This document shows, piece after piece, positions 14,579 through 62,114 of a stretch of DNA of 64,000 bases (position 1 is its first letter; each line of letters begins with the position of its first letter). A program made the position numbers and the translations under genes. The DNA lies in assembly GCA_902771695.1 (NCBI GenBank), contig CACXXP010000002.1, positions 1,958 to 65,957 of the forward strand, read 5' to 3'. This DNA comes from an uncultured Pseudomonadota bacterium. Its GTDB lineage: Bacteria > Pseudomonadota > Alphaproteobacteria > Rs-D84. The notes below the pieces were generated by a model. The model made no database searches, was not told the origin of the DNA, and worked only from the letters and a program-made list of their open reading frames with translations.

Positions 14579-14634
14579 TTAGTGGTTAGTATTAGTGAAT
14601 AGTAAAAACGGTTGCAATCGCAACCGTTTTTTTT
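14579..14634 (+). terminator. 3-prime cassette copy a: TAGTG repeats plus AACGGTTGC hairpin terminator (bidirectional)
   Basis: TAA TTAGTGGTTAGTATTAGTGAATAGT AAAAACGGTTGC-AATC-GCAACCGTTTTTTTT. It also sits 5 nt from the stop of the convergent gene at 14637. Confidence 0.8.
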
Positions 14635-25798: not shown

Positions 25799-28138
25799 AT
25801 GCAAAAACTGCTGAAAACATTGGGAAAAAGTATAATTTGTTTGTCTGTTATTGCAGTGACCGACGCATGTTTTGGTGCCGACAGTCCGCGTGGTGTGGCA
25901 AATAATAATCGTGGTCGTGGTGCCGTCAGCACCGCCCGTATGCCATCTATTCCAGTATTACCGGTAAGTGCCGTTGGACATATCACAACCAGCAGCAATA
26001 CCGTTAATCCAACGCCTACGCCGGAACCAGAACCTGGTCCGGGACCAACACCTCCGCCGGGGCCAACGCCTCCGCCGGGACCAACCCCACCTCCTCCTCC
26101 AGGCCCACAGCCAGATCCAGACACCCCTGTCACCCCAGGATGTCCAGACGGTGGCGTTGAAAATTCCGCGTACACGGTTGACAACTGTATGACCGAAGTT
26201 CTGGGCTGTGTAAACGGTGGTGCGTTACCAAATGGTATAAATTCACTGTTTAACCAAGATTTGCGTGAATCTATCATAAACGGCATGAGTTTATGCTTGA
26301 CCCAGGTTGAAAAGTGTATATCAACCGTTCGTAAGAATTGCCAATATGTCTATGCATCGGCATCTGACGTGTGGTTGGATTTTAACGCACGCAAGGTTCA
26401 ACCTGAATATTACAGATTTGTGCTTGCACAAACTGGTTTGACACCAACCCAGGCAGAAAACACATGCCTGTTGCTGGATCGTAACACGTATGGTGCATCA
26501 TTTAATGCGATTTCAAGCAGTGATACAACAACATCTGAATATGCCCAAAACGTTGGTGCATACAATGGTGCATTAAACAATTCATTGCGCAAAGCAAATC
26601 CGCTTGGTGCAACAGTAAACAGTTCTGGTATTGACGGCAAACGTGGATACTATGCCCGTTGGGATGCCGAAAAGGCAGAATGCTTGTTACGTGTTGCGGC
26701 ATACAACAAGGATACACCAATTAAAAACAGTTGGTTATTCGGCATTGTTGGAAATGATGACCCGGCCGAAGTATGGCAAGCCACTGGTTCAACATTTACC
26801 TGTAACAAAGATTTGTTCGGATTTTCGTTGATGAACAAAACCAAAACCACCGCAGTGGTTGGGATTGGTGGCGGAACCTTGGTTGGTGCCGGTGTCGGTG
26901 CATTGGCCGGACACGGTGACCGCAAATTTGATTGTTCCGTAAAATCTATGCGTGACGAATTGTTAAAGCAGATTCAGAACAATCAAAAAACTGGTGTAAT
27001 TAACCAATTCTTGGAAACCCAGATTGCAACAACTGATAAAACCATGACCCAGGCCCAGTGCAATGAAATCATGGAATTGTACGACACGTGGCAAATGGGT
27101 AAAGATGCGGTCAAGACCTGTGAAACCAAAGAACAGGTATTGGTAGAAATAGAGGCCGACTTTGATATTGACGTGGTCACCACTGCAATTCGCAATAATT
27201 GCAAGACGGGCGCATGCATATCAGATGTCCAAATGGACCAGATTGTTGCGGCAATACAAACACCGTTCCAACAATTGGCAAACGACTATGCGGCACAAAT
27301 CCAAGATGCGTTGAAATATTGTACTTTCCGTGCATTGAATTTGGCACGTCGTGATGGCACCGGCGTATATTGCCAAGGCCATAACAACGAATGTATCAGC
27401 CGTAAAGAATTCCAGGCCGAATTGTCCGCATTAACCAAAGTGTTCAATTCGTTGGATATCTTGAATGGCCAAGAATCAAATCGTCTGAAAACCACATTGA
27501 TTGGTGCCGGCATTGGTGCGGCGGCCGGTGGTACAGCGACGGCGATTACGGCATTTGTTGAACGCAATAACATTAACTGTCGTGTGGCTGATGGTTTGGC
27601 CAAGGTCGGATTTGGCAAATCGCATACAATCGACCGTTTGCGTGATTTCTATGTCAAATGGGCATTGAATTTGCCAGAAAACGTTGCACCGACCGCGGTT
27701 GTCACAAATTGTGAAAACTGGGGATTGACATGCGCACTGTATTCCGACTTGAATGAATGTCGTGCGGCACAATTCAATTACCGTCCGGGCAACTTGGCAA
27801 GTACAACATTGATTCAAAACGCATGTACCCCATCGGGCAGCGCATGTATTGCGAATGTTCCTGTGGCACAGGCAAATGGTGAATGCTTGTTAAGTCCAAA
27901 TCCAAACGATAATGATGAAGAAGCACCAAACGTAGCAACATGTGTAGAATGGAATGATCAGTGTGAAAAAATTACCAGTCCAGATGCCTGTGCCAAGGCC
28001 AAGGTAGTTTATACACCAAGTTCTATGTTGGTTGCCAATGCATGCAAGTATCAAGAAAGAATACATACATGCCGCGCAAGTGCACAAAAGGTAAAGGTGT
28101 ATATGGACATAAACAATTGTCCAATGCGCCTTGAATAA
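25799..28138 (+). CDS. secreted cysteine-module / glycine-zipper protein (779 aa), unknown family
   Basis: AAGGAGGG RBS. Signal peptide MQKLLKTLGKSIICLSVIAVTDA. Pro-rich PTPEPEPGPGPTPPPGPTPPPGPTPPPPPGP. Modules CMTEVLGC and CLTQVEKCISTVRKNC. Zippers VVGIGGGTLVGAGVGALAG and LIGAGIGAAAGGTATAITAF. C-terminal CVEWNDQC. Confidence 0.65.
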   Translation: MQKLLKTLGKSIICLSVIAVTDACFGADSPRGVANNNRGRGAVSTARMPSIPVLPVSAVGHITTSSNTVNPTPTPEPEPGPGPTPPPGPTPPPGPTPPPPPGPQPDPDTPVTPGCPDGGVENSAYTVDNCMTEVLGCVNGGALPNGINSLFNQDLRESIINGMSLCLTQVEKCISTVRKNCQYVYASASDVWLDFNARKVQPEYYRFVLAQTGLTPTQAENTCLLLDRNTYGASFNAISSSDTTTSEYAQNVGAYNGALNNSLRKANPLGATVNSSGIDGKRGYYARWDAEKAECLLRVAAYNKDTPIKNSWLFGIVGNDDPAEVWQATGSTFTCNKDLFGFSLMNKTKTTAVVGIGGGTLVGAGVGALAGHGDRKFDCSVKSMRDELLKQIQNNQKTGVINQFLETQIATTDKTMTQAQCNEIMELYDTWQMGKDAVKTCETKEQVLVEIEADFDIDVVTTAIRNNCKTGACISDVQMDQIVAAIQTPFQQLANDYAAQIQDALKYCTFRALNLARRDGTGVYCQGHNNECISRKEFQAELSALTKVFNSLDILNGQESNRLKTTLIGAGIGAAAGGTATAITAFVERNNINCRVADGLAKVGFGKSHTIDRLRDFYVKWALNLPENVAPTAVVTNCENWGLTCALYSDLNECRAAQFNYRPGNLASTTLIQNACTPSGSACIANVPVAQANGECLLSPNPNDNDEEAPNVATCVEWNDQCEKITSPDACAKAKVVYTPSSMLVANACKYQERIHTCRASAQKVKVYMDINNCPMRLE

Positions 28139-28313: not shown

Positions 28314-31300
28314 TTGAAAAATATATTGCTGATACTGGCATTTTTAATTGGTGGTTTTGATGCGCACGCGGCGCGTGTTGGTGGCACAAATTTGCGCGGT
28401 TCCGCAGGTTCTTCGGCGGAAATGCAACCAGGTACAACCAGTGCCAGATCAGCCGTACGCGGTTCTTCGGTCAAAGGTGTGGCCGGACGCAGCAATTTAT
28501 CCAATACATCATCATCGTCCACGGCGCCAAAAAATCTTGGTTCACGCGGACGCAGTGCAACTGCCCAAACTACACCAACCGTCAAGGCGCGCGCGGGCAC
28601 AAAACAAAGCGTTATCAGTTCCGGAACCAAGGTCGCAACCGCGGCACAAAATACTGTTGTTGATGAAGAATGCTGGAATAAATTCAGTGGGTGTATGGAT
28701 TCTTTCTGTATGTTGGATAATGCGACCGGTGGCCGTTGTATCTGCAGTGACAAGAACGCCGAATACGATTCGATTTTGGCTGAAATTCAAGAATTGGATA
28801 ATCAATCATACCAAATGGCGACCGTTGGTGTTGAACGTATTGAAATGGGCGACGATGCCGATGCAGTTATGGCAAGAACCAAGGCGATTACAAACAGTAT
28901 TGAAAAAGACGCCGAAAAAGCAAAATCAAAACGCCAATCGCTTGATTTATCCGCATGGAATACTGACAGTGGCATAGATTTTGACGAAGATGTAGAAGAT
29001 ATTTTCTCGCTGTCATCTGATGGTGTTTCGGTTGCAAACAAAAAAGGTGACGCACTGTATCGTGCATCTGCAAAACTTTGCACCGCCCAGTTGAAAGAAT
29101 GCAGCGCACAACACAAAATGATGGAATTGATGTATCAACAACGCATTCGTTCTGATTGCACGGCATATGAAAACAGTTTGCGTCAACAACGCACACAAAG
29201 CGCACAAAAATTGGCGGCGGCACAAAGTGCGATGCGCGAAGCGGCATTGGAGCAATATCGTAATGCAAACAAATACGATTTGGGACAATGCACCGTTGAA
29301 TTCAAAAAGTGTATGCAAACAACCGGCGGATGCGGCGATGACTTTACGGGTTGCGTGACACAACAAACAACACGTGAAACATTGCAGGGCGGCAAAATCA
29401 AAATGAAAAAGATTAAGGGTGCATCAACCACCATTGAAATTGCCGCATGGACATACGATGCATTGGAATCTAAAAAGCCATTGTGTATGACGGTTACGCA
29501 ACAATGCGTTAATGTTAAAGACCAGGTTTGGGATACATTCCTGCGCGAAGTTGCACCGCAAGTGAAATCTGCGGAATTGGCGGCGGAATCTGATTTGCGT
29601 ATGTCGTGTATTTCAACAATTTCCGACTGTTTCCAAAAGGCATGTAAAGAAAATATGGATCCAAATAATCCAGACGGTTCGTACGATATGTGTTTAACAC
29701 GTCCGGAAACATTACGTTCTTTCTGTAAAGTGCAAATAGACCCATGCGAAGCCGCGGAACCAAAAATCATGGATTACGTTCGTGCACGTTTGGCATCTAT
29801 GCGTGTTGATTCATGTACCAAAGAATTCAAGGAATGTTTGCAATCCGAAGACCGTTGTGGTGCCGATTATTCACAATGCGTTGGTTTGGATACCGATACA
29901 ATTGTTCGTATGTGCCCGGCCGAAAAGTTGGTTGGTTGCCAATATGACGATGCAGGGTCGGACGGTTCCGCCCGAACCAATAAAAGTGCCCAGGTTAAAA
30001 CCGATGACGAAATATACGATGAATTGGCACGCATCGCCCAGGGTATATTCTTGAACATAGATAACAACATGTTAACCACATGTCAAAAGGCCGCCGATGC
30101 CGCCATGATAAAGGTCTGCGGCAGCACCGAAGATTGTGATGATTTGGCAATTGACGAAACTGCTGGCACACGCAGTTTCAAATACCAAGTATGCCAGTTT
30201 GATGGTTTAAGTGATGGAAAATCTGCAGGTGTTGCCAGTGCAGATGGTGCAGCCGGGATGCCAAAATGGACGGGACAATGTTATGATTCATTGGATGCAA
30301 TTTCCAATGCGCAATTACAACAAGACGGTCAAAAAGGTTGGGCCGGGAAATTATCTGGCTTAGTATATTGGGGCGAAATTGCATATGATGTTGAGAAGAA
30401 TTCGTTCACCACAGAAAAAGAGTATATGAACTCCCTGGCTAAACTCGGGTATGAACTGACCGAAGATGAAAAACAAATCGTTCACGAACGTGTATTTGGA
30501 ACAGAAATTCGTGCAATGACACGTGCAGTTGAGCAAGCCATATCGGCAATTGAATCAGACCCCAAGGTTCAATATTGTATGTCGGGGCGCACTTTCCAAG
30601 GCATGCGTGATAAAGATGGTCAATTGGCAAAATTGGGTACACAAAATAAAGATGAGGCCCGTTTTCCGAAATTAACGGAACAAATGCGACGTATTATTGC
30701 TACATCGGCATTAAGAAATGCACGTAATAATTATATGAAAAAATATGATGATGAAATTATGCGTATGATGAAAGATCAAGTCAAAGCGGCAGAACGTCTG
30801 GATGAACAAGCTTCTAAGGAATTAGCTATTAAACAAGCCGAACAATCATGTGCCGATTGGGCAAAGAATACCACATTGCCTGCATCACAGGCGCCAAAGG
30901 CGAGCAACGTTGGTCGTTGGATTGCTGTTGGGGTAATCGCTGCCGCTGCGATTGTTGCATCCATATTTACTTTTGGAGCAGCCGCTGCTGGTGGTGCCGT
31001 AGCCATTGCATCCATTGTTGGAACAAGTATAACTGCCACCACAATATCAGCGGGTACCATAGCCGCAGGTGTCGCAGTTGCCGCGGCGGGAACTGCGGCA
31101 GGACTGGCCGCAACGACTAAACCTGTGGGGCAATCCAATATTGATCAATGGAACTATAAAGAAAGCGTGTCCACAATATTTAATTATCAAACAGGCGAAT
31201 GTTTCAAGACAAAAGTAACCCAGAATTGCAAAAAAATCAAAAAGAATTATTGCAAAGAATGGGACGAAGAAGTTGAAGAAACAACCAGTATCAATCTGTT

Positions 31301-31319
31301 GGATACTAATAAAGAATAA
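28314..31319 (+). CDS. secreted cysteine-module protein (1001 aa) with C-terminal triple glycine-zipper hydrophobic region, unknown family
   Basis: TTG start with an AAGGGG RBS. Signal peptide MKNILLILAFLIGGFDAHA. Modules CWNKFSGCMDSFC, CTVEFKKCMQTTGGCGDDFTGC, CISTISDCFQKAC and CTKEFKECLQSEDRCGADYSQC. Hydrophobic run WIAVGVIAAAAIVASIFTFGAAAAGGAVAIASIVG...AAGVAVAAAGTAAGLAA, then CKEWDEE. Confidence 0.65.
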   Translation: MKNILLILAFLIGGFDAHAARVGGTNLRGSAGSSAEMQPGTTSARSAVRGSSVKGVAGRSNLSNTSSSSTAPKNLGSRGRSATAQTTPTVKARAGTKQSVISSGTKVATAAQNTVVDEECWNKFSGCMDSFCMLDNATGGRCICSDKNAEYDSILAEIQELDNQSYQMATVGVERIEMGDDADAVMARTKAITNSIEKDAEKAKSKRQSLDLSAWNTDSGIDFDEDVEDIFSLSSDGVSVANKKGDALYRASAKLCTAQLKECSAQHKMMELMYQQRIRSDCTAYENSLRQQRTQSAQKLAAAQSAMREAALEQYRNANKYDLGQCTVEFKKCMQTTGGCGDDFTGCVTQQTTRETLQGGKIKMKKIKGASTTIEIAAWTYDALESKKPLCMTVTQQCVNVKDQVWDTFLREVAPQVKSAELAAESDLRMSCISTISDCFQKACKENMDPNNPDGSYDMCLTRPETLRSFCKVQIDPCEAAEPKIMDYVRARLASMRVDSCTKEFKECLQSEDRCGADYSQCVGLDTDTIVRMCPAEKLVGCQYDDAGSDGSARTNKSAQVKTDDEIYDELARIAQGIFLNIDNNMLTTCQKAADAAMIKVCGSTEDCDDLAIDETAGTRSFKYQVCQFDGLSDGKSAGVASADGAAGMPKWTGQCYDSLDAISNAQLQQDGQKGWAGKLSGLVYWGEIAYDVEKNSFTTEKEYMNSLAKLGYELTEDEKQIVHERVFGTEIRAMTRAVEQAISAIESDPKVQYCMSGRTFQGMRDKDGQLAKLGTQNKDEARFPKLTEQMRRIIATSALRNARNNYMKKYDDEIMRMMKDQVKAAERLDEQASKELAIKQAEQSCADWAKNTTLPASQAPKASNVGRWIAVGVIAAAAIVASIFTFGAAAAGGAVAIASIVGTSITATTISAGTIAAGVAVAAAGTAAGLAATTKPVGQSNIDQWNYKESVSTIFNYQTGECFKTKVTQNCKKIKKNYCKEWDEEVEETTSINLLDTNKE

Positions 31320-31337
31320 TGTATAAAGATAATATAA

Positions 31338-31363
31338 CCCCGCCCACAAATGTGGGCGGGGTA
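31338..31363 (+). terminator. hairpin terminator after the 1001-aa gene
   Basis: Perfect 11-bp stem ACCCCGCCCAC / GTGGGCGGGGT with an AAAT loop. The U-tract is weak. Confidence 0.55.
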
Positions 31364-31424
31364 ATTATAATCTTATTATAGCGAGTGATGTTCGAAACTC
31401 TTTATATCAACGCAATATAATCGC

Positions 31425-31488
31425 AAAAAAACGGTTGCGATTGCAACCGTTTTTACTAATCACTTACACTAACCACTATCACTAATGA
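31425..31488 (-). terminator. 3-prime cassette copy b after rplQ
   Basis: Gene-sense read: TAA TCATTAGTGATAGTGGTTAGTGTAAGTGATTAGT AAAAACGGTTGC-AATC-GCAACCGTTTTTTT. The hairpin is identical to copy a. Confidence 0.8.
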
Positions 31489-32064
31489 TTATTTGCCTGT
31501 GGCACGGCGTTTAACCGCAACGGTCTTTTTTTCCGCTGTGGCCTTTTTGGCCGCCGGTTCTTTTGCTGTGGCTTTCGTGGCCGTTGGCTTAGCCGCCTTT
31601 GGCGCCTTGGTTGCTTTTTTATCTGCTGCTTCGGTTGCAACCGCTTCTTCGGCCTTGGCCGCGGCTACTTCGGCCTTGGGTGCCGCTTTCTTGGCATTAA
31701 CATCACGGTCAATAAATTCAATGATTGCCATTGGTGCCGCATCACCATAACGGAAACCCGCCTTCAGAACGCGTGTATAACCACCTGGGCGTTTTGCATA
31801 ACGTGGTCCCAATACAGTGAACAATTTTTTAACGGCCGCCGCGCTGGCATTGCCCAATTCAGACGCAACAAGGCGACGATTTGCAACGCTATCAACTTTG
31901 GCACGTGTAACCAATTTTTCTACGACACTGCGCAGATCTTTGGCCTTTGGCAACGTTGTTTTGATTTGTTCTTTTTCAATTAAATTCTTCGCCAGGCCTA
32001 TAAACAACGCCTTGCGAGCATTTGTATCGCGATTAAATGTGCGACCTGCTTTTTGGTGTCTCAT
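31489..32064 (-). CDS. rplQ: 50S ribosomal protein L17 with Ala/Lys-rich C-terminal extension
   Basis: [21 protein letters not shown]... follows rpoA. The last ~70 aa are [16 protein letters not shown]...[31 protein letters not shown]. Confidence 0.95.
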
Positions 32065-32286
32065 CGGTTACTCCTTTATTTTGTTTCCGCCCTGCTCTAT
32101 CACGAGTGGGATTTCACCATATTTTCGTGTCCCAAAATTTTCATCCCGGTAACACGCATTTTCTCATTTAAACTGCCACTGTTAAGAAAACAATTTAGAT
32201 GAGGTTATTGGATGCGATTGACGGTTCGCAGTGTAGTTGACCTGCATAAGAACCGGCAATCGCGACAAGAGCCCATATAAATTGTT

Positions 32287-33315
32287 TTATTTGTATGGGT
32301 CTTCGTATTTCTTGGCCAACTCCGCAATATTTTCTGGTGGCCAACCTGGGACTTCCATACCCAACCCAAGGCCCATCGCTTCCAATTGAATCTTGATTTC
32401 ATTAAGCGATTTACGACCAAAGTTTGGTGTTTTCAACATGTCGGCTTCGGTCTTTTGGACCAATTCGCCAAGCCAGTTGATTTTGTCGTTTTTCAAGCAA
32501 TTGTTTGCACGGACAGACAATTCCAATTCATCAACGCGTTTCAACAGTTTCGGATCAAATTGCAATGCGTCCTTGGCCGCTTCTTCTTCGGCTGGCGCAC
32601 TGATTTGTGCCGGATCTTCAAAGTTGATGAACAATGTCAATTGGTCGGTCAAAATACGTGCCGCAAATGCGATTGCATCTTCGGGTGTGACACTGCCGTT
32701 TGTTTTGACGACCATTTCCAATTTATCAAAGTCGGTTGATTGACCAACACGTGTTTCTGAAACATTGCTGGCCACGTTCAAGATTGGTGAAAAGATAGAA
32801 TCAACCGGAATCACGCCCAACGGCAAACCGTCTGCATGTGCCGTTGCCGGAACATACCCACGGCCACAGCCCAATGTGATTTCCATATCAAATTGTGCAC
32901 CTTTGTCCAACGTGCAGATTTCTGCATCTGGGTTCATAATTTCAATTGCACTGGTTGTTTCAATCATGCCCGCCTTTACAACCGCCGGACCAGAAACATG
33001 CAATGATGCCTTGTGCTGACCTTCGCTGTTCGCCTTGAAATAAACGCCTTTCAGGTTCAGCAATATATCCGCAACGTCTTCGTGAACGCCCTGGATACTG
33101 GAAAATTCGTGTTGAACACCATCAATTTTAACATACAATGGTGCGCATCCCTGCAACGATGACAACAGAACGCGACGCAACGCGGTACCCAATGTCAAAC
33201 CAAAACCCTTTTCCAATGGTTCGGCAATCAGGGTCGCCTGGTTAGGATTATGTTCATCTGGGATGATATTCAGTTTTTTTGGCTTAATCAAAGCCATCCA
33301 ACTTTTTTCAATCAT
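32287..33315 (-). CDS. rpoA: DNA-directed RNA polymerase subunit alpha
   Basis: 342 aa. Carries [15 protein letters not shown] and the C-terminal-domain motif [12 protein letters not shown]...[15 protein letters not shown]. Confidence 0.96.
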
Positions 33316-33387
33316 TTATGTTCCCTTTTAGCTTAGTTTATCATTTTCGCCAATCGGCCACACACAAATTCCTTTGTGCGCCGGGGT

Positions 33388-33416
33388 ATTTTATAGCGTT
33401 TTTTACGGAAAGTCAA
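33388..33416 (-). promoter_or_regulatory. sigma70-type promoter for rpoA-rplQ
   Basis: Minus strand TTGACT (33416-33411), 17 nt spacer, TAAAAT (33393-33388). Lies just downstream of the terminator at 33447-33474. Confidence 0.55.
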
Positions 33417-33446
33417 GGAATTTACTAGCCACAACGCGGATTCAGT

Positions 33447-33474
33447 AAAAAAACACCCACACAATGTGTGGGTG
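33447..33474 (-). terminator. intrinsic terminator after the 251-aa gene, upstream of rpoA
   Basis: Stem CACCCACAC / GTGTGGGTG with a 3-nt loop. On the minus strand it is followed by TTTTTTT. Confidence 0.75.
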
Positions 33475-33490
33475 AAATAGAAAATACAGA

Positions 33491-34246
33491 TTAATATCTT
33501 GAACCACGTGCCTTGGCTTCTTCTCTGTCATAATTGGTCTTGGCCTGGCGGACTTTAACCTGTAGGTATTGAACGCACTTTTTGATGGCATTCTTATTGG
33601 CATATTCCGCGCTTTCGCAATCGTCCTTATCTACATTAGCAAACTGTTTACCTTCGGCATCGGCATACGCTTTCATTATAGCTATATCATTCACCAACTG
33701 TTTACGCGCATTTACCGTATCTTTATCTGCCGCCTGCGAAATCTTGTTAAGGTTACGCGTAAAGCAGTCGTAAACGTCCGCCTGGGATGTTACAGCATAA
33801 CAATCTTCTGCATTGGCCAGGCCAGCATTGTTGGACGAAGAACCACCCGATGATGAAGACGATGAAGAAGATGAACCGCCGGTCATAACTTCTATCTTGC
33901 TTTTTAAAACAGATTTTTCTAATTGTGTCTTGAACCGTTTAACCATCGCATTCAAGACATCATATTGCTGTTTCATTTGCTGGGCAATAACGGTTGATTT
34001 CAGGGCGATAATATTGTTCATCTCGGAAATTTGTCCGGAATCAGATGGATTTTTCAGCATACCATAATTATACGCGTGCGTACTGCACAATGCATACGCC
34101 GGCGAAAAATATTGGCAATCATTGTAATCATCATCGTCATATCCACCCGAATATGCATACGCACCAACGGACATGCCGCACAGCACCACCACCGCACAAA
34201 CGCGGATTAAATTTTTGGTACTAAAAATTTTCATTTTTGTTGTCAT
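33491..34246 (-). CDS. secreted protein (251 aa), partner of the 669-aa cysteine-module protein
   Basis: Signal peptide region MKIFSTKNLIRVCAVVVLCGMSVGAYA, poly-Ser GGSSSSSSSSSGGSSS, and paired Cys (DCYAVTSQADVYDC, DDCESAEYANKNAIKKC). 3-nt gap from the upstream gene. Confidence 0.55.
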   Translation of the reverse strand: MTTKMKIFSTKNLIRVCAVVVLCGMSVGAYAYSGGYDDDDYNDCQYFSPAYALCSTHAYNYGMLKNPSDSGQISEMNNIIALKSTVIAQQMKQQYDVLNAMVKRFKTQLEKSVLKSKIEVMTGGSSSSSSSSSGGSSSNNAGLANAEDCYAVTSQADVYDCFTRNLNKISQAADKDTVNARKQLVNDIAIMKAYADAEGKQFANVDKDDCESAEYANKNAIKKCVQYLQVKVRQAKTNYDREEAKARGSRY

Positions 34247-34249
34247 TTA

Positions 34250-36259
34250 CTAAAAGAAATTTCCACATGTTTCTCTTGCATCCGCTTCTGACCCAAAATA
34301 TTCTGTCATACCTTTGATACAATCTGCTTTATTACTAAATCGCGATAAATCATCGGGATTGTTCGCCATATTACCATTACTCAACACATTACCAACACTA
34401 AACTTTTGGGCAATTTTGTCTATTGTGTTTACAGACTGAGCCGACCGTGCTGGCAATACATTAATAGGAACCGCACCAACAGGGATACACTTATTCTGAT
34501 ACCATGCACAATTATCATCTTTATTACACGGGTCAGAAGTTTTATATTCTGCACACTTCTCACGATATTGTGGTGCATCCGCAAGAGCCCCCCCCTTGTA
34601 CGTGCACTTACCAGAAACCCACTGACAAACTGGGTCCAAGCCACAATTTACAACCCCTTTACCTGCACAATTACCGATCTTATTCTCTATTACCACAGTT
34701 TCAACATCTTCGCCATCACGACCCATTGCCTTTTCATCGGCAAAACAGTAATCTTTACGTTTACCCAATTTCTTGGTTCGGGCGGCGGTTTCCAATTTCT
34801 TTAAACGTTGGCTGCTGGTATCGGGGACCGCACAGAAATTTGCACCACAATCTTTCAAATCATAACCATCAGCATTCTTGCTCTTACGACATGATGGGAA
34901 AGAATCTTGGTTAATTAAATTACGCAATGTTTCAATATCCAATGTTGCATTTTTCTTCATACCACGGAATAACGAAACATTCATAACCACGTCGGACGCA
35001 CATGCAACCTGGGTCGAACCAGTCATACCAGAATTCGCATCAACCCATTCGCGTTGAACTTCTTCCCCATCGTTTATTATTCCGACCAAACGGCAATGCG
35101 GTTGATTTTTTGATACTTTACCGTCACTGGTAGTTATAACGCGATAGTAACAATTCTTCTTGTCACCATAACATTCGCAACAACCTTCTGTATCACTGCA
35201 CGTTCCAGCCTTACCACTGGGACAAGTATTACACATATACTTACCCCACATGTTGCATGACCCAGATAACAACATAATAACGTCACTGACATCGATACCA
35301 ACCGTCATTGCCAATATCAATGCATCATACATATTTTCAACAACAGATTCATACGGGTCAAAGAATTCATTTGCCAGGTCTTTGAATTTCTTCACACGTT
35401 TTGGCCCCGTACAATTATTCACACCCGCATCACAACCCGCATATTCCAACACGCGATCCAATGTTTCTTTCATTTTCTTCATTTCGGTGACGGCATCTTC
35501 CACGGCGGTTTCAATTTGTCCGCCAATTTGTTCACGCACCAAAATATCAGGATTTATCCCATTTTTCGCCGCAATCTTTTCGGCAACCCCCATGTCTTCT
35601 AAACCTTCAACATCCGGTCCCAATTCAGATGTCACAATCGCGGCATTTGCGCGACTTTCTTCCAATGCACTCTGAATCTGGGCGGCCTGGGATTCATTTT
35701 GTGCCGCCATTTGCGCCTGCATATTGGCCATAGATTCTGCCATTTGTTGTTGCATTGCCGCCATTTGTGATTGCATTTGTTGCATCTGGGCGTTGCTCTG
35801 TTCGGCGGCCGCAGATGCCGCGGCGGCTTGGGCCTGGGCTTGGGCCTGGGCAATTGCAACCGCATTTTGTTGTTCTTGAACCTTGGCATTAGATTTCGCA
35901 ACCAATTGCCCCGTCAAAGAATCTATCAAGGCATCACCATGCTTTTTACATGTGGCGTTGGAATTCACGCATCCCGCAACAATCGGACGCGCAACCGATG
36001 CATCATTACACCCAGATGAACATTTGGGCGTTGCACAACGCAGAATTATGGCCTCGCAATTACCAAAATTCGCCTCGGCCACGTTGGCGGTCATTCCCCC
36101 ACGGGCGTTCATCATACTGTTCCATTTGTTATTATTCGTGGCACCCGTGCCATTATACGCGGTCAGGTTAGAACCCGCCGTTGTCGCAACATTGGCCACC
36201 GCCGGCGTTAGAAACGCGGCGCACAATACACCACACAAGACCTTTAATGGAATATACAT
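34250..36259 (-). CDS. secreted cysteine-module protein (669 aa), same family as the 20.2-31.3 kb genes
   Basis: Start set to ATG 36259 (MYIPLKVLCGVLCAAFLTPAVA). Module CEAIILRCATPKCSSGC, a Gln/Ala coiled coil (AQAQAQAQAAAA...MQQMQSQMAAMQQQMAESMANMQAQMAAQ), and C-terminal CQWVSGKC and CAWYQNKC. Confidence 0.65.
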   Translation of the reverse strand: MYIPLKVLCGVLCAAFLTPAVANVATTAGSNLTAYNGTGATNNNKWNSMMNARGGMTANVAEANFGNCEAIILRCATPKCSSGCNDASVARPIVAGCVNSNATCKKHGDALIDSLTGQLVAKSNAKVQEQQNAVAIAQAQAQAQAAAASAAAEQSNAQMQQMQSQMAAMQQQMAESMANMQAQMAAQNESQAAQIQSALEESRANAAIVTSELGPDVEGLEDMGVAEKIAAKNGINPDILVREQIGGQIETAVEDAVTEMKKMKETLDRVLEYAGCDAGVNNCTGPKRVKKFKDLANEFFDPYESVVENMYDALILAMTVGIDVSDVIMLLSGSCNMWGKYMCNTCPSGKAGTCSDTEGCCECYGDKKNCYYRVITTSDGKVSKNQPHCRLVGIINDGEEVQREWVDANSGMTGSTQVACASDVVMNVSLFRGMKKNATLDIETLRNLINQDSFPSCRKSKNADGYDLKDCGANFCAVPDTSSQRLKKLETAARTKKLGKRKDYCFADEKAMGRDGEDVETVVIENKIGNCAGKGVVNCGLDPVCQWVSGKCTYKGGALADAPQYREKCAEYKTSDPCNKDDNCAWYQNKCIPVGAVPINVLPARSAQSVNTIDKIAQKFSVGNVLSNGNMANNPDDLSRFSNKADCIKGMTEYFGSEADARETCGNFF

Positions 36260-36275
36260 CTCTCTTCTTATCAAG

Positions 36276-36292
36276 ATATTTTATCATAAAAA
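36276..36292 (-). promoter_or_regulatory. extended -10 promoter core for the 669-aa gene
   Basis: Minus strand TTTTTATGATAAAATAT, i.e. TGA-TAAAAT at 36286-36278. The same 17 nt occur at 28274-28290. Confidence 0.45.
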
Positions 36293-36320
36293 CAGACCAA
36301 ATAAAAGGTAAAAGTTTACT

Positions 36321-36351
36321 AAAAAAAGCATCCGGACAAAGCCGAATGCTT
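36321..36351 (-). terminator. intrinsic terminator after the 106-aa gene
   Basis: Stem AAGCATCCGG / CCGAATGCTT (9 of 10 bp). On the minus strand it is followed by TTTTTTT. Confidence 0.6.
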
Positions 36352-36382
36352 AAACAACATAACAAACAAGGAGAAAAAAGAA

Positions 36383-36703
36383 TTATCCGTTGCAGCGGTT
36401 GCAATTGTTATTGCGAACCACGCGGCGTTCTGAATATGTGCCTGCTGGTTCATAAACCGTTACCGGACGATATACCTGGTAATGATCAATTACTTCGGTA
36501 TGTGTTTTAACACGAACTGGTTGTGCACAAGAATTGCATGGTGCAGAAACTGTGCGAGCCGGTGCAGCATAGTTAACAGCTGCTGTGTTATAACGAACGT
36601 GATTTGTGTATGTTTCTGTTTCGGTATAAACCCCACCATCAGATGCATTTGCACTGACCGCAACCATCGCAGCAAACAAACCAGACAAAATTGTTTTTTT
36701 CAT
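36383..36703 (-). CDS. small secreted protein with two CxxC pairs (106 aa)
   Basis: Signal peptide MKKTILSGLFAAMVAVSANA. Contains CNSC and CNRC. Confidence 0.55.
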   Translation of the reverse strand: MKKTILSGLFAAMVAVSANASDGGVYTETETYTNHVRYNTAAVNYAAPARTVSAPCNSCAQPVRVKTHTEVIDHYQVYRPVTVYEPAGTYSERRVVRNNNCNRCNG

Positions 36704-36806
36704 ATTTGACCCTTTTGGTTATTCGTCAATATTATAGGACACAAAAATTCGTTGTCAAGCATTATTGACAAATTTTTTTATTAGTGGTTTACAACCCAAT
36801 TTTCGA

Positions 36807-37136
36807 CTAAAACTTTAGAACAATTCCCAACACACCGTCTTGTTTGTCTGACGGGCAGAACTGATCTATGATACGGATTGCGGTATCTGTATCAGGAAAC
36901 CCACATTTTGTAACCGGGATTATATCAAACAATTCCTTGAATGTTTTGGCACAAACCAATCCCGAAACCCTCATGACAAAACTTTCGGATTCATTTTCAT
37001 TGCAAATAAAACGAATCGCATCACCCAATTGGATTTTTTTGCGTTTTTCATCCAGCAGACGCAATTCTATGGTTTTGGTTCCACGCAAAAACATGTCAAA
37101 ATAGATTTTTTTCAGATGCATTGTATGTTCAATCAT
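36807..37136 (-). CDS. ASCH (PUA-like) domain protein
   Basis: Start at ATG 37136 with an AGGAGGA RBS. HLKKIYFDMFLRGTKTIELRLLDEKRKKIQLGDAIRF fits the ASCH N-terminal pattern. The longer ORF-track version would overlap rpsK and its terminator. Confidence 0.55.
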   Translation of the reverse strand: MIEHTMHLKKIYFDMFLRGTKTIELRLLDEKRKKIQLGDAIRFICNENESESFVMRVSGLVCAKTFKELFDIIPVTKCGFPDTDTAIRIIDQFCPSDKQDGVLGIVLKF

Positions 37137-37160
37137 AAAATCCTCCTGGGGGTGGTACGA

Positions 37161-37185
37161 AAAAACGCCCAAACGGGCGTTTTTA
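37161..37185 (-). terminator. intrinsic terminator directly after rpsK
   Basis: Stem AAAAACGCCC / GGGCGTTTTT with an AAAC loop, 7 nt after the rpsK stop. A T-run follows on the minus strand. Confidence 0.75.
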
Positions 37186-37191
37186 TTATCT

Positions 37192-37569
37192 TTAGACACG
37201 ACGCACTTTCTTTGGACGGCATCCATTGTGTGGAATACGGGTTGTATCAGTAATGCTTTGCACAATCAATCCAGCATTTGCCAAACCACGAACCGCAGAT
37301 TCACGACCTTGGCCAATACCACGCATCAAAACATCAACGGTCTTCATCCCCATTTCCGCGACCTTTTTACCAACCGCATCTGCCACAACTGTTGCAGCAT
37401 AAGGTGTAGATTTCTTGGCACCTTTGAAATTATTTGCACCCGCGGTTGCCCATGTTAACACGGCACCCGATTGGTCGGTAATTGTAATACGTGTGTTATT
37501 GTTAGTGGCAACGACATGTGCAATGCCGTGCGATACTTTTTTTACAACTTTCTTTTTATTAATTGCCAT
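37192..37569 (-). CDS. rpsK: 30S ribosomal protein S11
   Basis: GIAHVVATNNNTRITITDQSG...STPYAA... matches the S11 family. Follows rpsM. Confidence 0.96.
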   Translation of the reverse strand: MAINKKKVVKKVSHGIAHVVATNNNTRITITDQSGAVLTWATAGANNFKGAKKSTPYAATVVADAVGKKVAEMGMKTVDVLMRGIGQGRESAVRGLANAGLIVQSITDTTRIPHNGCRPKKVRRV

Positions 37570-37634
37570 TTTTATTTTTTCCTTTGATTAGATGTCTTCA
37601 ATTAACTATCGTGTTAATCTCTACCCAATTTTTA

Positions 37635-38012
37635 TTATTTACCCTTGACCGCAGAACCCGCGACGACAACACGTTTACCCTTACGTGTACGTGCATTTGT
37701 CTGCGTGCGTTGACCACGAACGGGCAAACGGTTACGATGACGAATGCCACGATACGTTTTCAAATCTTGCAAACGTTTGATATTCATTGCAACTTCACGA
37801 CGAACGTCACCTTCTACCTTAAAGTTCTGTTCAATATAGTTAGAAATTTTGATAACATCTTCGTCGGTCAAATCTTTTGTACGCAACCCGTCTTTCAATT
37901 TCAGGGCCTTGCAGATTTGGGCGGCCCGTGTTGGACCAATACCATGAATATACTGCAATGACGCTTCTATACGTTTTTCCGCGGGGATGTTTACACCTGC
38001 TATACGTGCCAT
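37635..38012 (-). CDS. rpsM: 30S ribosomal protein S13
   Basis: [26 protein letters not shown]... Confidence 0.96.
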
Positions 38013-38091
38013 TTTTACTTTTCCTTTTTATTTTCACTGGACACCCTGCTCTGCGGCAAAATGCCCTGTCCTATTAAACCTTTGCGGAATA

Positions 38092-38119
38092 ATTTTATAT
38101 AAATTATCGCAAAAGTCAA
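38092..38119 (-). promoter_or_regulatory. internal promoter candidate between secY and rpsM
   Basis: Minus strand TTGACT (38119-38114), 16 nt spacer, TAAAAT (38097-38092). A ~75-nt leader follows, containing GGACA...TGTCC pairing. Confidence 0.4.
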
Positions 38120-38145
38120 ACCTTGTTTCACGCCGCTAATTTTAC

Positions 38146-39465
38146 TTAACTGCGGAAACGACCTTTCTTTGCGGCGGCGCCCATAACGCCATGATATTGT
38201 TTTGCCACCAAATAGGATTGAACCTGGTTCATGGTATCTAAAACAACACCCGCAACGATTAAAACACTTGTTCCACCGATAACCAGTGGCATACCAAAAT
38301 GCGTATTCAGTATGATTGGAATCACACAAACCACAATCAAATACAGAACGCCGATTGCCGTTACCTTGGAAACCATAGAATCCAAGAAAGTGATTGTTTG
38401 TTCACCCGGACGAACCCCTGGAATATACCCACCGGCATTACGCAAGTTGTTGCTGGTTTCTTCGGAATTAAACACGACGGCTGTTTGGAAATACGCAAAG
38501 AACGCAATCAAAATTGTATATAAAATGATATATGACCACGCACCATACGTAAAGAACGCCATAATATTTTGGACAACCAAATTTTCGCTTTGTGCGAATC
38601 GCTGAATAAACGCCGGTAACATCATAATAGACGATGCAAACACCGGTCCCATAACACCCGACATATTAACCTTGATTGGTAAATATGACGCATTTGTATT
38701 CACAACACCATTCGCCATAACTTGACGCGGATACAAAATCTGAACACGACGCTGGGCCATTTCAAAGAACGCGATAAGCGCAACAATACCTACAACGAAT
38801 GCGATAATTAACGCAATCATCGCCGGTGACATCTGACCAACCGATCCCAACGATACGACCTTGGCAATGCCTTCGGGAACCTGGGCGATGATACCCGCAA
38901 AGATAAGCAGTGATGCGCCCTGACCTATGCCACGTGCAGTAATCTGTTCCGCCAACCACATAACAAATACAGTTCCACCAACCAATGCGATAATCGCAGA
39001 CAATTCAAACGAAAATCCAGGGTTCACAACCGCACGCACACCATTTACCGGTGCCATAGATTCCAATCCACGAACCACGGCCCAACCTTGAACCACGGCC
39101 AGCAACACCGCCAAATAACGTGTATATTGGTTGATTTTGATACGACCCGATTCGCCTTCTTTACGCAAATCATTCAACGATTTGCTGGTTGCCGTCAATA
39201 ACTGCAACACGATAGATGCCGATATGTACGGGAAAATGTTCAACGCCAACACCGACATACGCGACAACGAACCGCCGGTGAACATATCAAACATACCCAT
39301 CATACCACTGCCTTCGCCCTGAAACAGATGCAGAACCGCAGACGCGTTAACACCCGGCAACGGAATAAACGAACCGATACGATAGATAACCAACGCACCC
39401 AAAGTAAACAAAATACGTTTTTGCAAATCGGTTAACTTACCAAAATATTTTGAAAAGATTTTCAT
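38146..39465 (-). CDS. secY: preprotein translocase subunit SecY
   Basis: Start moved to ATG 39465 (MKIFSKYFGKLTDLQKRILFTLGALVIYRIGSFIPLPG). Multi-TM SecY pattern throughout. Confidence 0.95.
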   Translation of the reverse strand: MKIFSKYFGKLTDLQKRILFTLGALVIYRIGSFIPLPGVNASAVLHLFQGEGSGMMGMFDMFTGGSLSRMSVLALNIFPYISASIVLQLLTATSKSLNDLRKEGESGRIKINQYTRYLAVLLAVVQGWAVVRGLESMAPVNGVRAVVNPGFSFELSAIIALVGGTVFVMWLAEQITARGIGQGASLLIFAGIIAQVPEGIAKVVSLGSVGQMSPAMIALIIAFVVGIVALIAFFEMAQRRVQILYPRQVMANGVVNTNASYLPIKVNMSGVMGPVFASSIMMLPAFIQRFAQSENLVVQNIMAFFTYGAWSYIILYTILIAFFAYFQTAVVFNSEETSNNLRNAGGYIPGVRPGEQTITFLDSMVSKVTAIGVLYLIVVCVIPIILNTHFGMPLVIGGTSVLIVAGVVLDTMNQVQSYLVAKQYHGVMGAAAKKGRFRS

Positions 39466-39491
39466 GCGTTGTTCTCTCTTTTTATCCCAAA

Positions 39492-39950
39492 TTATTTGTT
39501 TTTGATACTGCCACCTGCTTTTACAATCGCAGCTTCTGCGGCCTTGGACCATTTATCTGCGACAACGTTAACAGCTGTTTTGATTTCACCTTTGGCCAAA
39601 ACCTTCAACCCCGACAAACGACGATTGATGATTTTTGCAGCCAACAAAGAATCAATTGTAATTTCTTTTGTGGCATCAATTTTACCCGATGCGATGAATT
39701 TTTCAATATCGCCCAAATTGATTGTCACATAATGTTTGGCAAATGGATTTTGGAATCCAAATTTTGGGAAACGACGCATAATTGGCATCTGACCACCTTG
39801 GAAAGTTGCCTGTTTACGTGAACCCGCACGCGCCTTTTGACCCTTGGTACCACGACCGGCGGTTTTACCATAACCAGACGCCATACCACGACCAACGCGT
39901 TTAATTCCTTTGCGTGCGCCCAAATTATCCATCAAAGCATTTAATTTCAT
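39492..39950 (-). CDS. rplO: 50S ribosomal protein L15
   Basis: Start moved to ATG 39950 (MKLNALMDNLGARKGIKRVGRGMASGYGKTAGRGTKGQ). Confidence 0.95.
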   Translation of the reverse strand: MKLNALMDNLGARKGIKRVGRGMASGYGKTAGRGTKGQKARAGSRKQATFQGGQMPIMRRFPKFGFQNPFAKHYVTINLGDIEKFIASGKIDATKEITIDSLLAAKIINRRLSGLKVLAKGEIKTAVNVVADKWSKAAEAAIVKAGGSIKNK

Positions 39951-40021
39951 TTCTTTACTCCTATGAACTCTATATAGTTCTGTTTCGCATACGGACAAGT
40001 ATCCGCATACTCGGTTTCTTG

Positions 40022-40345
40022 TTAAAATTCTCGCCCTAATACCGGATGATATGTTGTCGGATATGTGTTGAACAAAAATTTTCTTGTTTCAAAATCATCA
40101 CAATTCCCGATGAAATAACCGATATTCTGATTTGCGATATATTCTGCCCTTTCTTGTTTTTGTGATTCAGCAACACGCCGAACCATTTCATTGTTATTGC
40201 GAATAAAATCAACGTATTTATCAAACAAAGCCCGCGCTAAATTTGGATACACATTGGCTACTTCAACAAAAACCTCAAAAACCCTATGTTGCCTTACAAC
40301 CTCGGCCATATCCAAATGCGCAATATAATTTTCTTTGTTTAACAT
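40022..40345 (-). CDS. hypothetical protein (107 aa) embedded in the spc operon between rpmD and rplO
   Basis: Complete ORF MLNKENYIAHLDMAEVVRQHRVFEVF... with an AAAGGA RBS. Begins 8 nt after the rpmD stop and ends 71 nt before rplO. No promoter or terminator seen on either side. No motif recognised. Confidence 0.5.
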   Translation of the reverse strand: MLNKENYIAHLDMAEVVRQHRVFEVFVEVANVYPNLARALFDKYVDFIRNNNEMVRRVAESQKQERAEYIANQNIGYFIGNCDDFETRKFLFNTYPTTYHPVLGREF

Positions 40346-40353
40346 ACTATCCT

Positions 40354-40536
40354 TTATTCTTCCACAACACTTATTAAATGTGCGACCTTGGCAATCATAC
40401 CACGAATTGCGGCACTGTCCGCAAATTCATGTGTTTTACCGATACGACCCAAACCCAACGTCGCCAAGATTTTGCGTTGCGATTCCGGACGACCAATAAC
40501 ACTTTTGATTTGTTTTACAATTATTTTCTTTGCCAT
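40354..40536 (-). CDS. rpmD: 50S ribosomal protein L30
   Basis: MAKKIIVKQIKSVIGRPESQRKILATLGLGRIGK. Start set to ATG 40536. Confidence 0.93.
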   Translation of the reverse strand: MAKKIIVKQIKSVIGRPESQRKILATLGLGRIGKTHEFADSAAIRGMIAKVAHLISVVEE

Positions 40537-40551
40537 AACAATCACCTTTTA

Positions 40552-41112
40552 TTATTTATCTTCCGTTGCCGCTTCTTCGGTCATCTTTCTGCCGTCACGA
40601 CCAGCGACAATTTCTGCAACCGTTTTACCACGACGCGCCGCCACTGTTTTTGGCGAATTCATCTTAGAAAATGCCAAGAACACTGCGCGAATCATATTGT
40701 TTGGATTGTTTGCACCTTGGGATTTTACAACGACGTCTTGAACGCCCAAGCAATCAAACACCGCACGCAACGCACCACCTGCAATGATACCGGTCCCAGG
40801 AACCGCACTGCGCAAAACCAATTTACTTGCACCGTATTTAACAGAAACATCATGATGCAATGTGCGCCCTTCTTTCAACGGAACGCGAATCATTTTTGCC
40901 TTGGCGGCCTTGGTTGCTTTCTGAACTGCGGCTTGAACTTCCAATGCTTTACCCTTACCAAAACCAACTTTGCCGGCCTTGTCTCCAACGACAACCAATG
41001 CCGAGAAAGACATGTTTTTACCGCCCTTAACGGTTTTGGAAACGCGATTGACAGAAACAAGTTTATCTACCAAATTATCTGTCTGTAATTTTTTATCATC
41101 AAAACGTGCCAT
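40552..41112 (-). CDS. rpsE: 30S ribosomal protein S5
   Basis: [24 protein letters not shown]...[13 protein letters not shown]. Confidence 0.96.
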
Positions 41113-60196: not shown

Positions 60197-60256
60197 GTGA
60201 ACAGTGGTTAGTGTTAGTGGTTAGTAAAAACGGTTGCGTTTGCGACCGTTTTTTTG
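60197..60256 (+). terminator. 3-prime cassette copy c after the acyl-CoA synthetase gene
   Basis: TAA GTGAACAGTGGTTAGTGTTAGTGGTTAGT AAAAACGGTTGC-GTTT-GCGACCGTTTTTTT. Confidence 0.8.
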
Positions 60257-62058: not shown

Positions 62059-62114
62059 GGAAAAAAACGGTTGCAAACGCAACCGTTCTTACTAACCACT
62101 AACACTAACCACTA
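62059..62114 (-). terminator. 3-prime cassette copy d after fabF (the fabF TAG stop is part of it)
   Basis: Gene-sense read: TAGTGGTTAGTGTTAGTGGTTAGT AAGAACGGTTGC-GTTT-GCAACCGTTTTTTT. Confidence 0.8.

Follow-up and report, generated by a model that had tools for sequence, protein, structure and literature searches.

The adjacency of rpsK, which encodes ribosomal protein S11, and rpoA is among the most stable gene neighbourhoods in bacteria. We analysed this junction in a 64,000-nucleotide (nt) stretch of DNA, hereafter the window, from an uncultured alphaproteobacterium of the order Rs-D84 (contig CACXXP010000002.1 of assembly GCA_902771695.1, positions 1,958 to 65,957), in which rpsK and rpoA lie 3.9 kb apart and the gap between them holds four genes. 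These encode a small ASCH protein and three proteins that we call p106, p669 and p251 after their lengths in amino acids (aa).

The genes and signals of the junction all lie on the minus strand. The ribosomal-protein cluster runs rpmD, an extra 107-aa open reading frame (ORF), rplO, secY, rpsM (37635-38012) and rpsK (37192-37569; Pfam PF00411, E 3.9e-38), the last gene of the rpsM-rpsK unit, and only beyond the gap do rpoA (32287-33315; Pfam RNA_pol_A_bac and RNA_pol_A_CTD) and rplQ (31489-32064; Pfam Ribosomal_L17) follow. The order rpsM-rpsK ... rpoA-rplQ on one strand is that of the alpha operon, and rpsD is absent from the locus, as is usual in Alphaproteobacteria. Seven nucleotides past the rpsK stop codon (37192-37194) lies a hairpin with a T-run (37161-37185, AAAAACGCCC-GTTT-GGGCGTTTTT; -14.1 kcal/mol, z = -4.0). 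Behind it come the ASCH gene (36807-37136, 109 aa), with an AGGAGGA ribosome-binding site (RBS) and no promoter of its own, and then p106 (36383-36703), with two CxxC motifs and a predicted signal peptide ending in ...SANA before SDGG. The p106 gene has its own predicted terminator (36326-36351, -13.2 kcal/mol) and promoter, TTGACA-16-TATAAT (36731-36758), which matches the consensus at 12 of 12 positions and was missing from the first-pass annotation of this DNA. An extended -10 element (TGATAAAAT, 36278-36286) precedes p669 (34250-36259, 34 cysteines), whose ATG at 36259 follows AGAAGAGAG, a sequence kept in relatives. The p251 gene (33491-34246) starts 3 nt beyond the p669 stop and is followed by another hairpin terminator (33447-33474, -14.8 kcal/mol), by the predicted rpoA-rplQ promoter TTGACT-17-TAAAAT (33388-33416) and by the rpoA leader (33316-33387), which contains a 16-nt motif, GAAAAT(G/A)ATAAACTAA (33333-33348), closed by a 3-base-pair (bp) stem. 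The four genes, hairpins and promoters listed by the first-pass annotation are all present where it placed them, and this anatomy bears out its central observation that the junction is broken by about 3.7 kb of independently punctuated genes.

By RpoA, the source organism belongs with 80 species-level loci from metagenome-assembled genomes (MAGs) of rumen and gut, 82-99% identical and labelled Candidatus Enterousia or uncultured Alphaproteobacteria. Enterousia is a member of the order Rs-D84 with genomes of about 0.75-1.0 Mb that encode many hypothetical membrane proteins and lack the tricarboxylic acid (TCA) cycle and a respiratory chain (PMC12306168). These 80 species-representative loci, all with at least 82% RpoA identity, formed our comparison set, in which rpsK, rpoA and the cargo genes were placed by tblastn. 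Ten further loci (L081-L090), metagenome contigs or other genomes carrying ASCH or p669 homologs, were examined beyond that set.

Conservation of the terminator, promoter and leader

The three hairpins that we folded (37161-37185, 36326-36351 and 33447-33474) have free energies of -13.2 to -14.8 kcal/mol and z-scores near -4, each beating at least 199 of 200 shuffles. A terminator scan of the 10-kb region returned 15 sites against 12 expected from shuffled sequence, so that the total is not enriched; its four strongest matches are exactly the intergenic ones. Terminator positions are kept in relatives, with compensatory changes in the stems. A hairpin with T-run lies 3' of rpsK in 56 of 61 related loci, the other five having longer hairpins there. 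On the rpoA side, TTGACT and TAnAAT stand in register in 51 of 52 aligned upstream regions, insert-free loci included, and the leader motif is invariant in 52 of 52 apart from its G/A position. The 3-bp stem that closes the motif shows G-C/G-U/A-U exchanges and is the only structure that RNAalifold recovers from the leader; ahead of the motif, at the predicted start of the rpoA transcript, lies a species-specific hairpin that does not align between species. The motif is unique in the window, and a search of the region 31000-41000 against Rfam gave no credible match for the leader or the insert, the one hit with E 0.69 overlapping the p251 terminator hairpin. The motif may represent an unrecognised regulatory leader of rpoA and rplQ.

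Four loci with short gaps show what the junction looks like with nothing inserted. The shortest (L077, 109 nt) runs from the rpsK stop through a hairpin with T-run, TTGACT-17-TATAAAAT and the leader straight into rpoA, and the gaps of L032 (134 nt) and L015 (204 nt) have the same layout. The fourth, L075 (199 nt), has retained hairpins and leader but no recognisable TTGACT promoter, which makes it the single exception in the promoter alignment. The first-pass annotation had proposed that the insert broke a co-transcribed rpsK-rpoA pair and that a fresh promoter then restarted rpoA. Since the same signals are kept clade-wide, including in most insert-free gaps of 109-204 nt, the rpoA promoter is better read as ancestral than as fresh, and the conserved terminator and promoter-leader argue against co-transcription of rpsK and rpoA. 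Judged by this conservation, the predicted terminator, promoter and leader go back to the ancestor of the sampled clade and do not depend on the cargo. The terminator past p251 is a less constant feature: L002 and L081 have it, whereas no hairpin separates p251 from the rpoA promoter in L003 and L005, which indicates that insulation of rpoA from the cargo is not obligatory.

The gap as a variable island

We then compared the gap itself across the 80 loci, of which 16 carried too little upstream DNA for the junction to be judged. The two genes are colinear in 51 loci, with gaps of 109-9715 nt (median 1527) of which only four are below 250 nt; in four others the rpsK block is inverted relative to rpoA, and in nine the 10 kb upstream of rpoA contain no rpsK. 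The junction is thus interrupted in 60 of the 64 judgeable species. The ORFs found in the gaps fall into dozens of unrelated clusters, and of the ORFs with 100 aa or more, 58% reach a cysteine content of 3% and about 56% begin with a signal-peptide-like N-terminus. What is near-universal is the interruption, whereas the cargo varies and is unannotated; an arrangement fixed throughout the clade and of known function, which would have spoken against an old domesticated insertion, is not what these genomes contain.

The order of the window does recur. In other species-level genomes and metagenome contigs we found rpsK-(ASCH)-p106-p669-p251-rpoA with p669 identities down to 47%, which shows that the arrangement is old; together with a native composition, described below, this agrees with the first-pass view of an old insertion rather than a recent mobile element. 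One metagenome contig (L088) has the same gap order with p669 at 63% identity, and another (L090, 47%) has a fused p669-p251 gene between p106 and rpoA. Among the 80 loci, only the closest species (L002-L005 and L008, with RpoA identities of 94% or more) have the p669-p251 pair in the gap; elsewhere it lies downstream of rplQ (L011, L017) or, in L089, beside ftsK. The p106 family is the commonest gap resident, with 26 ORFs in colinear gaps (18 on the opposite strand and eight in the same orientation), and is often alone in gaps of 600-900 nt.

These distributions bear on the idea that a single ancient 3.7-kb insertion split a co-transcribed rpsK-rpoA pair, after which a terminator and a new promoter evolved and the block was domesticated as a unit. 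The recurrence of the four-gene order in several species and contigs, the native composition and the missing mobile-element marks would all fit such an event. We nevertheless consider it unlikely: most insert-free relatives with gaps of 109-204 nt have all three signals (terminator, promoter and leader), homology of the promoter and leader extends to nearly every related locus, and the components are distributed differently, p106 occurring alone and in either orientation, the pair at other sites in L011, L017 and L089, and ASCH patchily. The first-pass annotation was thus right about the age of the block and mistaken in treating it as one insertion, its contents turning over between species. 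As read from these comparisons, the 3.7-kb block is a composite, multi-step and still-changing island in a terminator-promoter spacer.

An intergenic repeat, (C/T)ACTAACCACTAA, often in two or three degenerate tandem copies, was also seen in the window, at 14579-14591 (-), 31467-31479 (+), 60201-60226 (-) and 62090-62115 (+), with a half-copy at about 36770-36795, upstream of the p106 promoter. The window contains seven hits where 1.0 is expected, a number that none of 100 shuffles reached. The repeat adjoins intrinsic terminators or precedes promoters, brackets gap cassettes in L003, L004, L011, L084 and L090, and occurs almost exclusively in the subclade whose RpoA identity is 92% or more. 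Its role may be that of a recombination substrate or an insulator.

The ASCH gene and p106

The ASCH protein of the window scores 18 bits by itself, below the Pfam cut-off of 21.2; it matches phrog_19935, annotated 'RNA-binding protein', end to end with E 2e-14. A profile built from its homologs matched Protein Data Bank (PDB) entries 2z0t (E 2e-23), 1s04 (E 2e-20) and 1xne (E 2e-13) over the full length, and 35 of 37 aligned homologs passed PF04266. On this family-level evidence we accept the ORF at 36807-37136 as a predicted stand-alone ASCH protein. It resembles PH0355 (2z0t) and PF0455 (1s04) in its size of about 110 aa and its end-to-end profile match, but these are uncharacterised archaeal structural-genomics targets, and the window protein alone lies below the Pfam threshold.

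Its distribution is patchy. ASCH is absent from all 80 Genome Taxonomy Database (GTDB) loci, which at first suggested that it was unique to the source genome; this was overturned by finding it at the identical position, with 77-80% identity, in L081-L086. L002, L003, L005 and L008, which are without ASCH, have instead 130-270 nt of non-homologous filler separating the terminator T-run from the conserved p106 promoter. In the window the ASCH RBS begins 15 nt past the rpsK T-run and the start codon follows at 24 nt, a distance of about 30 nt in L081 and L084. Because 24-30 nt leaves no room for a promoter, expression of ASCH must rely on read-through of the rpsK hairpin, which is consequently best read as an attenuator. 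The hairpin is probably leaky, acting as an attenuator ahead of a promoterless gene, and the first-pass description of the cargo as isolated by this hairpin needs to be amended to that extent.

A hairpin with T-run placed behind a ribosomal-protein gene and ahead of a gene that needs expression, here ASCH, recalls the internal attenuators of ribosomal and RNA polymerase operons, such as the rplL-rpoB attenuator and the internal terminator of rpsU-dnaG-rpoD in E. coli. The junction differs in that its rpoA has a conserved promoter of its own and does not depend on read-through, and partial termination is what the spacing here implies.

The second gene, p106, encodes a small protein of predicted Sec-exported type with a conserved C-terminal VKTHTEVIDHYQVYxPV and without a family match in Pfam, NCBIfam or PHROGs. 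Its promoter and 5' untranslated region are nearly invariant in six aligned relatives, and the position of its terminator is kept while the stems differ.

The promoterless position of ASCH directly behind rpsK, and the fact that ASCH domains are predicted RNA-binding modules, raise the question of whether the cargo was placed here to work with the translation or transcription machinery or to share its expression level, ASCH being an RNA factor and the other genes exploiting read-through. L003 and L005, in which cargo transcription could enter rpoA for lack of the p251-rpoA terminator, and the second small ORF wedged between rpmD and rplO would be compatible with this. The remainder of the data make it quite improbable, since p106, p669 and p251 carry predicted signal peptides and have their own promoters, the cargo is wholly different between species, ASCH is dispensable in the closest relatives and the p669-p251 pair would function at unrelated loci.

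The p669-p251 pair

The extended -10 element of p669 reads TGnTAnAAT in all ten relatives examined, followed by AGAAGAGAGATG or, as in L002, L005 and L090, by a close variant ending AGAGAGATG. The protein begins with a predicted Sec-type signal peptide. Residues 21-460 are mostly 50-90% conserved, with short dips at 201-220 and 341-360, and include six invariant cysteines (68-104), a coiled coil rich in glutamine and alanine (120-200) and an invariant core (275-340). A variable cysteine loop spans residues ~341-370, and the C-terminal third (residues ~460-669, nt 34250-34882) is hypervariable, with 5-38% conservation. Its downstream neighbour p251 has a predicted Sec-type signal peptide too and is all-helical with conserved cysteine pairs.

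Neither protein could be assigned to a known family. A p669 profile run against 1.84 billion representative proteins found only 170 matching clusters, with a sharp cut-off and no remote annotated relatives, and ten of the weaker matches contained no informative Pfam domain. Homologs of p251 number 266, and all the named ones come from alphaproteobacterial MAGs. Searches of p669, p251 and p107 (the 107-aa ORF) against Pfam, NCBIfam and PHROGs returned only coiled-coil or low-complexity noise (of tape-measure, ProA and CotO type), and the p669 and p251 family profiles found nothing credible among PDB sequences (HORMA, E 0.008 over 90 aa; CSM1, E 0.06). AlphaFold2 (AF2) models were mostly helical and modest in quality, with a predicted local distance difference test score (pLDDT) of 63.5 and a predicted template modelling score (pTM) of 0.27 for p669, and 64.1 and 0.43 for p251; Foldseek comparison of these models with the PDB gave generic helical bundles at E 0.75 or worse. 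As far as these searches reach, p669 and p251 are families confined to metagenome-assembled alphaproteobacterial genomes, with p669 an orphan.

The two proteins are related to each other. Their homologs share contigs throughout the family, and p251 corresponds to the C-terminal domain of longer p669-like proteins (P0109; hhalign probability 99.9%, E 6e-35), such fusions accounting for 58 of 265 p669-like proteins and 42 of 145 representative clusters (~29%). The hhalign match and the fusions support the earlier suggestion that p251 is the partner of p669, and by their 3-nt spacing, shared contigs and fusions the two appear as one unit. The first-pass annotation had also placed p669 in a 'cysteine-module family' shared with other proteins of the window. 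We compared it with the cysteine-rich window proteins at 28314-31319, 25799-28138, 21089-23638 and 20224-21087, and found by BLASTP and profile-profile comparison only a similarity of signal peptides: the best BLASTP match of p669 to the 1001-aa neighbour (28314-31319) had E 0.55, there were no cross-hits among window ORFs at E ≤ 0.01, and hhalign of p669 and p251 against the four families gave probabilities of at most 10%, for p669 over signal peptides only. Among the cysteine-rich proteins tested, only p669 and p251 relate to each other.

Evolutionary tempo and probable segment replacement

The cargo evolves far faster than its flanks. Protein identity to the window is 97-100% for RpsK, 92-99% for RpoA and 94-98% for SecY in relatives, against 75-95% for p106, 55-85% for p669 and 42-66% for p251. 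The ratio of nonsynonymous to synonymous divergence (dN/dS) is 0.12-0.21 for p669 and p251, indicating functional genes under purifying selection overall, and 0.01-0.07 for rpsM, rpsK, secY and rpoA. In the same genome pairs, the cargo shows a synonymous divergence (dS) 3-10 times that of the adjacent rpsK and rpoA, and the nearest relative differs from gene to gene across the locus.

This mosaicism is seen in the strain pair L081 and L082, which are 97-100% identical at the nucleotide level over rpsK, ASCH, p106, p251, rpoA and rplQ. Over p669 the identity falls to 73% in the cysteine loop and to 43-52% in the last ~300 nt. We infer that this is the pattern expected of recombinational segment replacement in an exposed, diversifying protein. 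Two specific sources of the variable end were considered and set aside: a diversity-generating retroelement (DGR), as the divergence includes indels, leaves 43-52% identity and is not adenine-specific, and a silent cassette, as there are no partial copies of p669 within ±10 kb.

A conserved N-terminal two-thirds followed by a hypervariable C-terminal third, replaced here between two near-identical loci, with a small gene directly downstream, is also the layout of a polymorphic toxin and its immunity gene, with p669 as the toxin with a swappable C-terminus and p251 as the immunity protein. This we regard as very improbable. p251 carries a predicted signal peptide and would itself be exported; it remains ~99% identical between L081 and L082 despite their different p669 C-termini, whereas a cognate immunity gene changes along with its toxin; and it is fused as the C-terminal domain to the p669 N-domain in ~29% of family clusters. 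Moreover, searches of Pfam, NCBIfam and PHROGs detected no toxin, Rhs, contact-dependent inhibition (CDI) or secretion-system domain, so that of the features of such systems only the swappable C-terminus is seen here, without a toxin or delivery domain or a co-varying immunity gene.

Mobile-element marks and composition

None of the four insert ORFs matched an integrase, transposase or recombinase family in Pfam, NCBIfam or PHROGs. Repeats flanking the insert are short, imperfect and at chance level, and there is no tRNA gene nearby, the nearest lying at 7386 and 58258. These scans agree with the first-pass annotation, which had seen no integrase, transposase or flanking direct repeats, and the comparison of base composition and codon usage that it had proposed showed that the insert matches its surroundings: GC content is 0.38-0.45 against a window mean of 0.423 ± 0.032, the codon distance falls in the range shown by the window's 64 genes, and GC, GC3 (third codon positions) and codon usage give no foreign signature. 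The block thus has no recombinase, flanking repeats, adjacent tRNA or deviant composition by which a mobile element or genomic island would be recognised. Nor does it resemble an integron, as there is no integrase in or beside the gap (the region covered for this purpose), p106 and p669 have their own promoters, and the recurrent ACTAACCACTAA units form short tandem repeats next to terminators rather than attC-like imperfect palindromes.

Two observations in other genomes touch on mobility. A contig from the Hadza gut (L087) carries at 7001-7336 an ASCH homolog of 45% identity amid small unannotated ORFs and a head-fibre-like gene, a prophage-like setting that fits the PHROG match of the window ASCH. 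GC-rich palindromes resembling repetitive extragenic palindromic (REP) or miniature inverted-repeat transposable (MITE) elements (for example GTCCCCCCCTTCACAATGTGAAGGGGACTT and GAAGTCCCCTTCTTATAAAGAAGGGG) fill gap spacers in L088, L084, L090 and L004, and at L088 8650-9620 direct copies (~150 nt) of composite palindromic units flank a DUF559 gene (endonuclease fold) between p251 and rpoA. That the block of the window is a recent mobile element or phage remnant, as the PHROG relative of ASCH, its prophage-like homolog and the palindromes with DUF559 in some relatives might suggest, is scarcely credible when it has no integrase, transposase, tRNA or flanking repeat, its composition is native, tblastn of ASCH against 50,697 phage records found no match, the arrangement is common to several species with p669 identities down to 47%, and GC-rich palindromes are absent from the window.

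Other features of the ribosomal-protein region

Several observations concern the neighbouring genes. The 107-aa ORF, p107 (40022-40345, -), lies between rpmD and rplO, 8 nt past rpmD, and having neither terminator nor promoter it is embedded in the spc operon. It is found in L003, L005 and L084 (67-73% identity) and absent from most relatives, with a different 122-aa ORF at that position in L090. Upstream of rpsM, the leader (37980-38073, -) gives a sub-threshold match to the Rfam family Alpha_RBS (30.9 bits against a gathering threshold of 38, E 5e-4), with a TTGACT-16-TAAAAT promoter (38092-38119) just upstream of it; an S4-type translational operator may persist at rpsM although rpsD lies outside the operon. 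The interval from secY to rpsM contains no adk, infA or rpmJ.

On the other side, the 1001-aa cysteine-rich protein (28314-31319, +) beside rplQ has a signal peptide and a C-terminal hydrophobic region. Its homologs adjoin rplQ in most of the 80 loci, often as two or three tandem paralogs and in either orientation, with 39-76% identity in the relatives tabulated, so that rpoA-rplQ is flanked on both sides by fast-evolving proteins of predicted exported type. The rplQ 3' third encodes a C-terminal extension of L17 of ~70 aa, rich in Ala, Lys, Glu and Thr, which varies strongly between close relatives, the whole protein being 81-98% identical where RpoA is 98-99% identical.

Discussion

We consider it probable that Enterousia has an ancestral two-unit alpha operon whose spacer is a permissive landing site for cassettes that turn over. 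The first unit would comprise a promoter, rpsM, rpsK and the terminator, and the second a promoter (TTGACT-17-TAnAAT), the conserved leader, rpoA and rplQ. Into the spacer between the rpsK terminator and the rpoA promoter, self-contained gene cassettes would have landed, to be accumulated, inverted, exchanged or lost in different lineages, and in about a fifth of species the process would have gone on to invert or unlink the rpsK and rpoA halves. The island of the window would have been assembled in at least three steps. The longest-established and most widely distributed gene would be p106, which has its own promoter and terminator; the p669-p251 operon, under a separate extended -10 promoter, would have been a further addition, as would ASCH, which is patchy among genomes and, wedged directly behind the rpsK hairpin, would be expressible by read-through only. 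The conserved rpsK and rpoA flanks would act as homology arms for allele exchange.

The predicted export signals, conserved cysteines, p669-p251 fusion and mosaic hypervariability suggest that p106, p669 and p251 most likely contribute to a variable envelope or surface complex engaged with a host, a partner organism or a phage.

Several points weigh against this account of the locus. The promoters and terminators are sequence predictions backed by conservation only, and the terminator-promoter split can be called ancestral for loci with at least 82% RpoA identity. The polarity of the change comes from general bacterial synteny and four scattered short-gap species, and the short gaps could be secondary losses. 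The raised dS of the cargo could partly reflect codon-usage constraint on the ribosomal genes and alignment error at 45-65% identity, and the surrounding ±10 kb yielded neither a donor nor a silent cassette from which the swapped p669 segments could have come. For the surface role, the AF2 models are of low confidence (pLDDT ~64, pTM 0.27-0.43) and their matches uninformative; Enterousia reportedly has no respiratory chain, which makes periplasmic disulfide formation problematic, and the invariant cysteines might instead bind metal.

Gene invasion of the spacers between operons, followed by inversion or separation of the units, is known for the same operon cluster, where 67% of events were traced to insertions (PMC8046335). 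As in that process, in which a few genes enter the spacer between concatenated core units, selection for linkage relaxes and later rearrangements invert or separate the units, Enterousia displays the whole series at one junction, from 109 nt through 0.5-9.7 kb to inverted and unlinked states. The difference is that its break lies between rpsK and rpoA, genes of one undivided alpha operon in the gammaproteobacteria and bacilli of that study, which covers neither Alphaproteobacteria nor this junction, and that it is near-universal (60 of 64 judgeable species) with a cargo that turns over. Invasion of an inter-operon gap is therefore a known phenomenon; what is unusual here is the site within the alpha operon, the near-universality and the turnover.

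Variable, fast-diverging cargo between conserved flanks that could serve as homology arms, with mosaic divergence and a dS far above that of the flanks, also characterises hypervariable surface loci between core genes such as the pneumococcal cps locus (dexB-aliA) and the O-antigen cluster (galF-gnd). The present locus differs from these in encoding orphan secreted proteins rather than polysaccharide synthesis and in having rpsK and rpoA as flanks, and recombination at it is our interpretation of the divergence pattern. For the putative role of the cargo, an analogy may be drawn with the cysteine-rich variable coat and envelope proteins of host-associated microbes, such as the variant surface proteins (VSPs) of Giardia and chlamydial OmcA/OmcB: abundant exported cysteine-rich proteins, a small and a large partner, and rapid variation in the gut or host. 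The window cargo nonetheless has no sequence or structural similarity to known families.

A more specific proposal, which we regard as doubtful, is that a genome of less than 1 Mb uses the gap as a site dedicated to exchanging cassettes of variable surface proteins, with rpsK and rpoA as universal homology arms between strains and species, and with the ACTAACCACTAA arrays and GC-rich palindromes at cassette borders as internal recombination points. If this were true, a reduced-genome gut symbiont would be swapping segments of a p669/p251 coat and generating antigenic or receptor variation at the population level within the most conserved operon cluster of bacteria.

The proposed two-unit alpha operon with its permissive spacer would have broader implications. 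Enterousia is a whole clade in which the rpsK-rpoA junction is routinely broken and in which all stages, from bare spacer to unlinking, exist side by side, making it a natural test bed for the decay of core operon clusters. Its genomes suggest that the decisive precondition for such decay is the internal terminator-promoter pair rather than the inserted genes. The cargo in turn points to candidate envelope or surface proteins in a gut lineage that is uncultured and has a reduced genome, namely the p669-p251 unit, with what appears to be strain-level segment replacement, and the widespread p106, and these three proteins would be the first targets for antibodies, localisation and strain typing in rumen and gut metagenomes.

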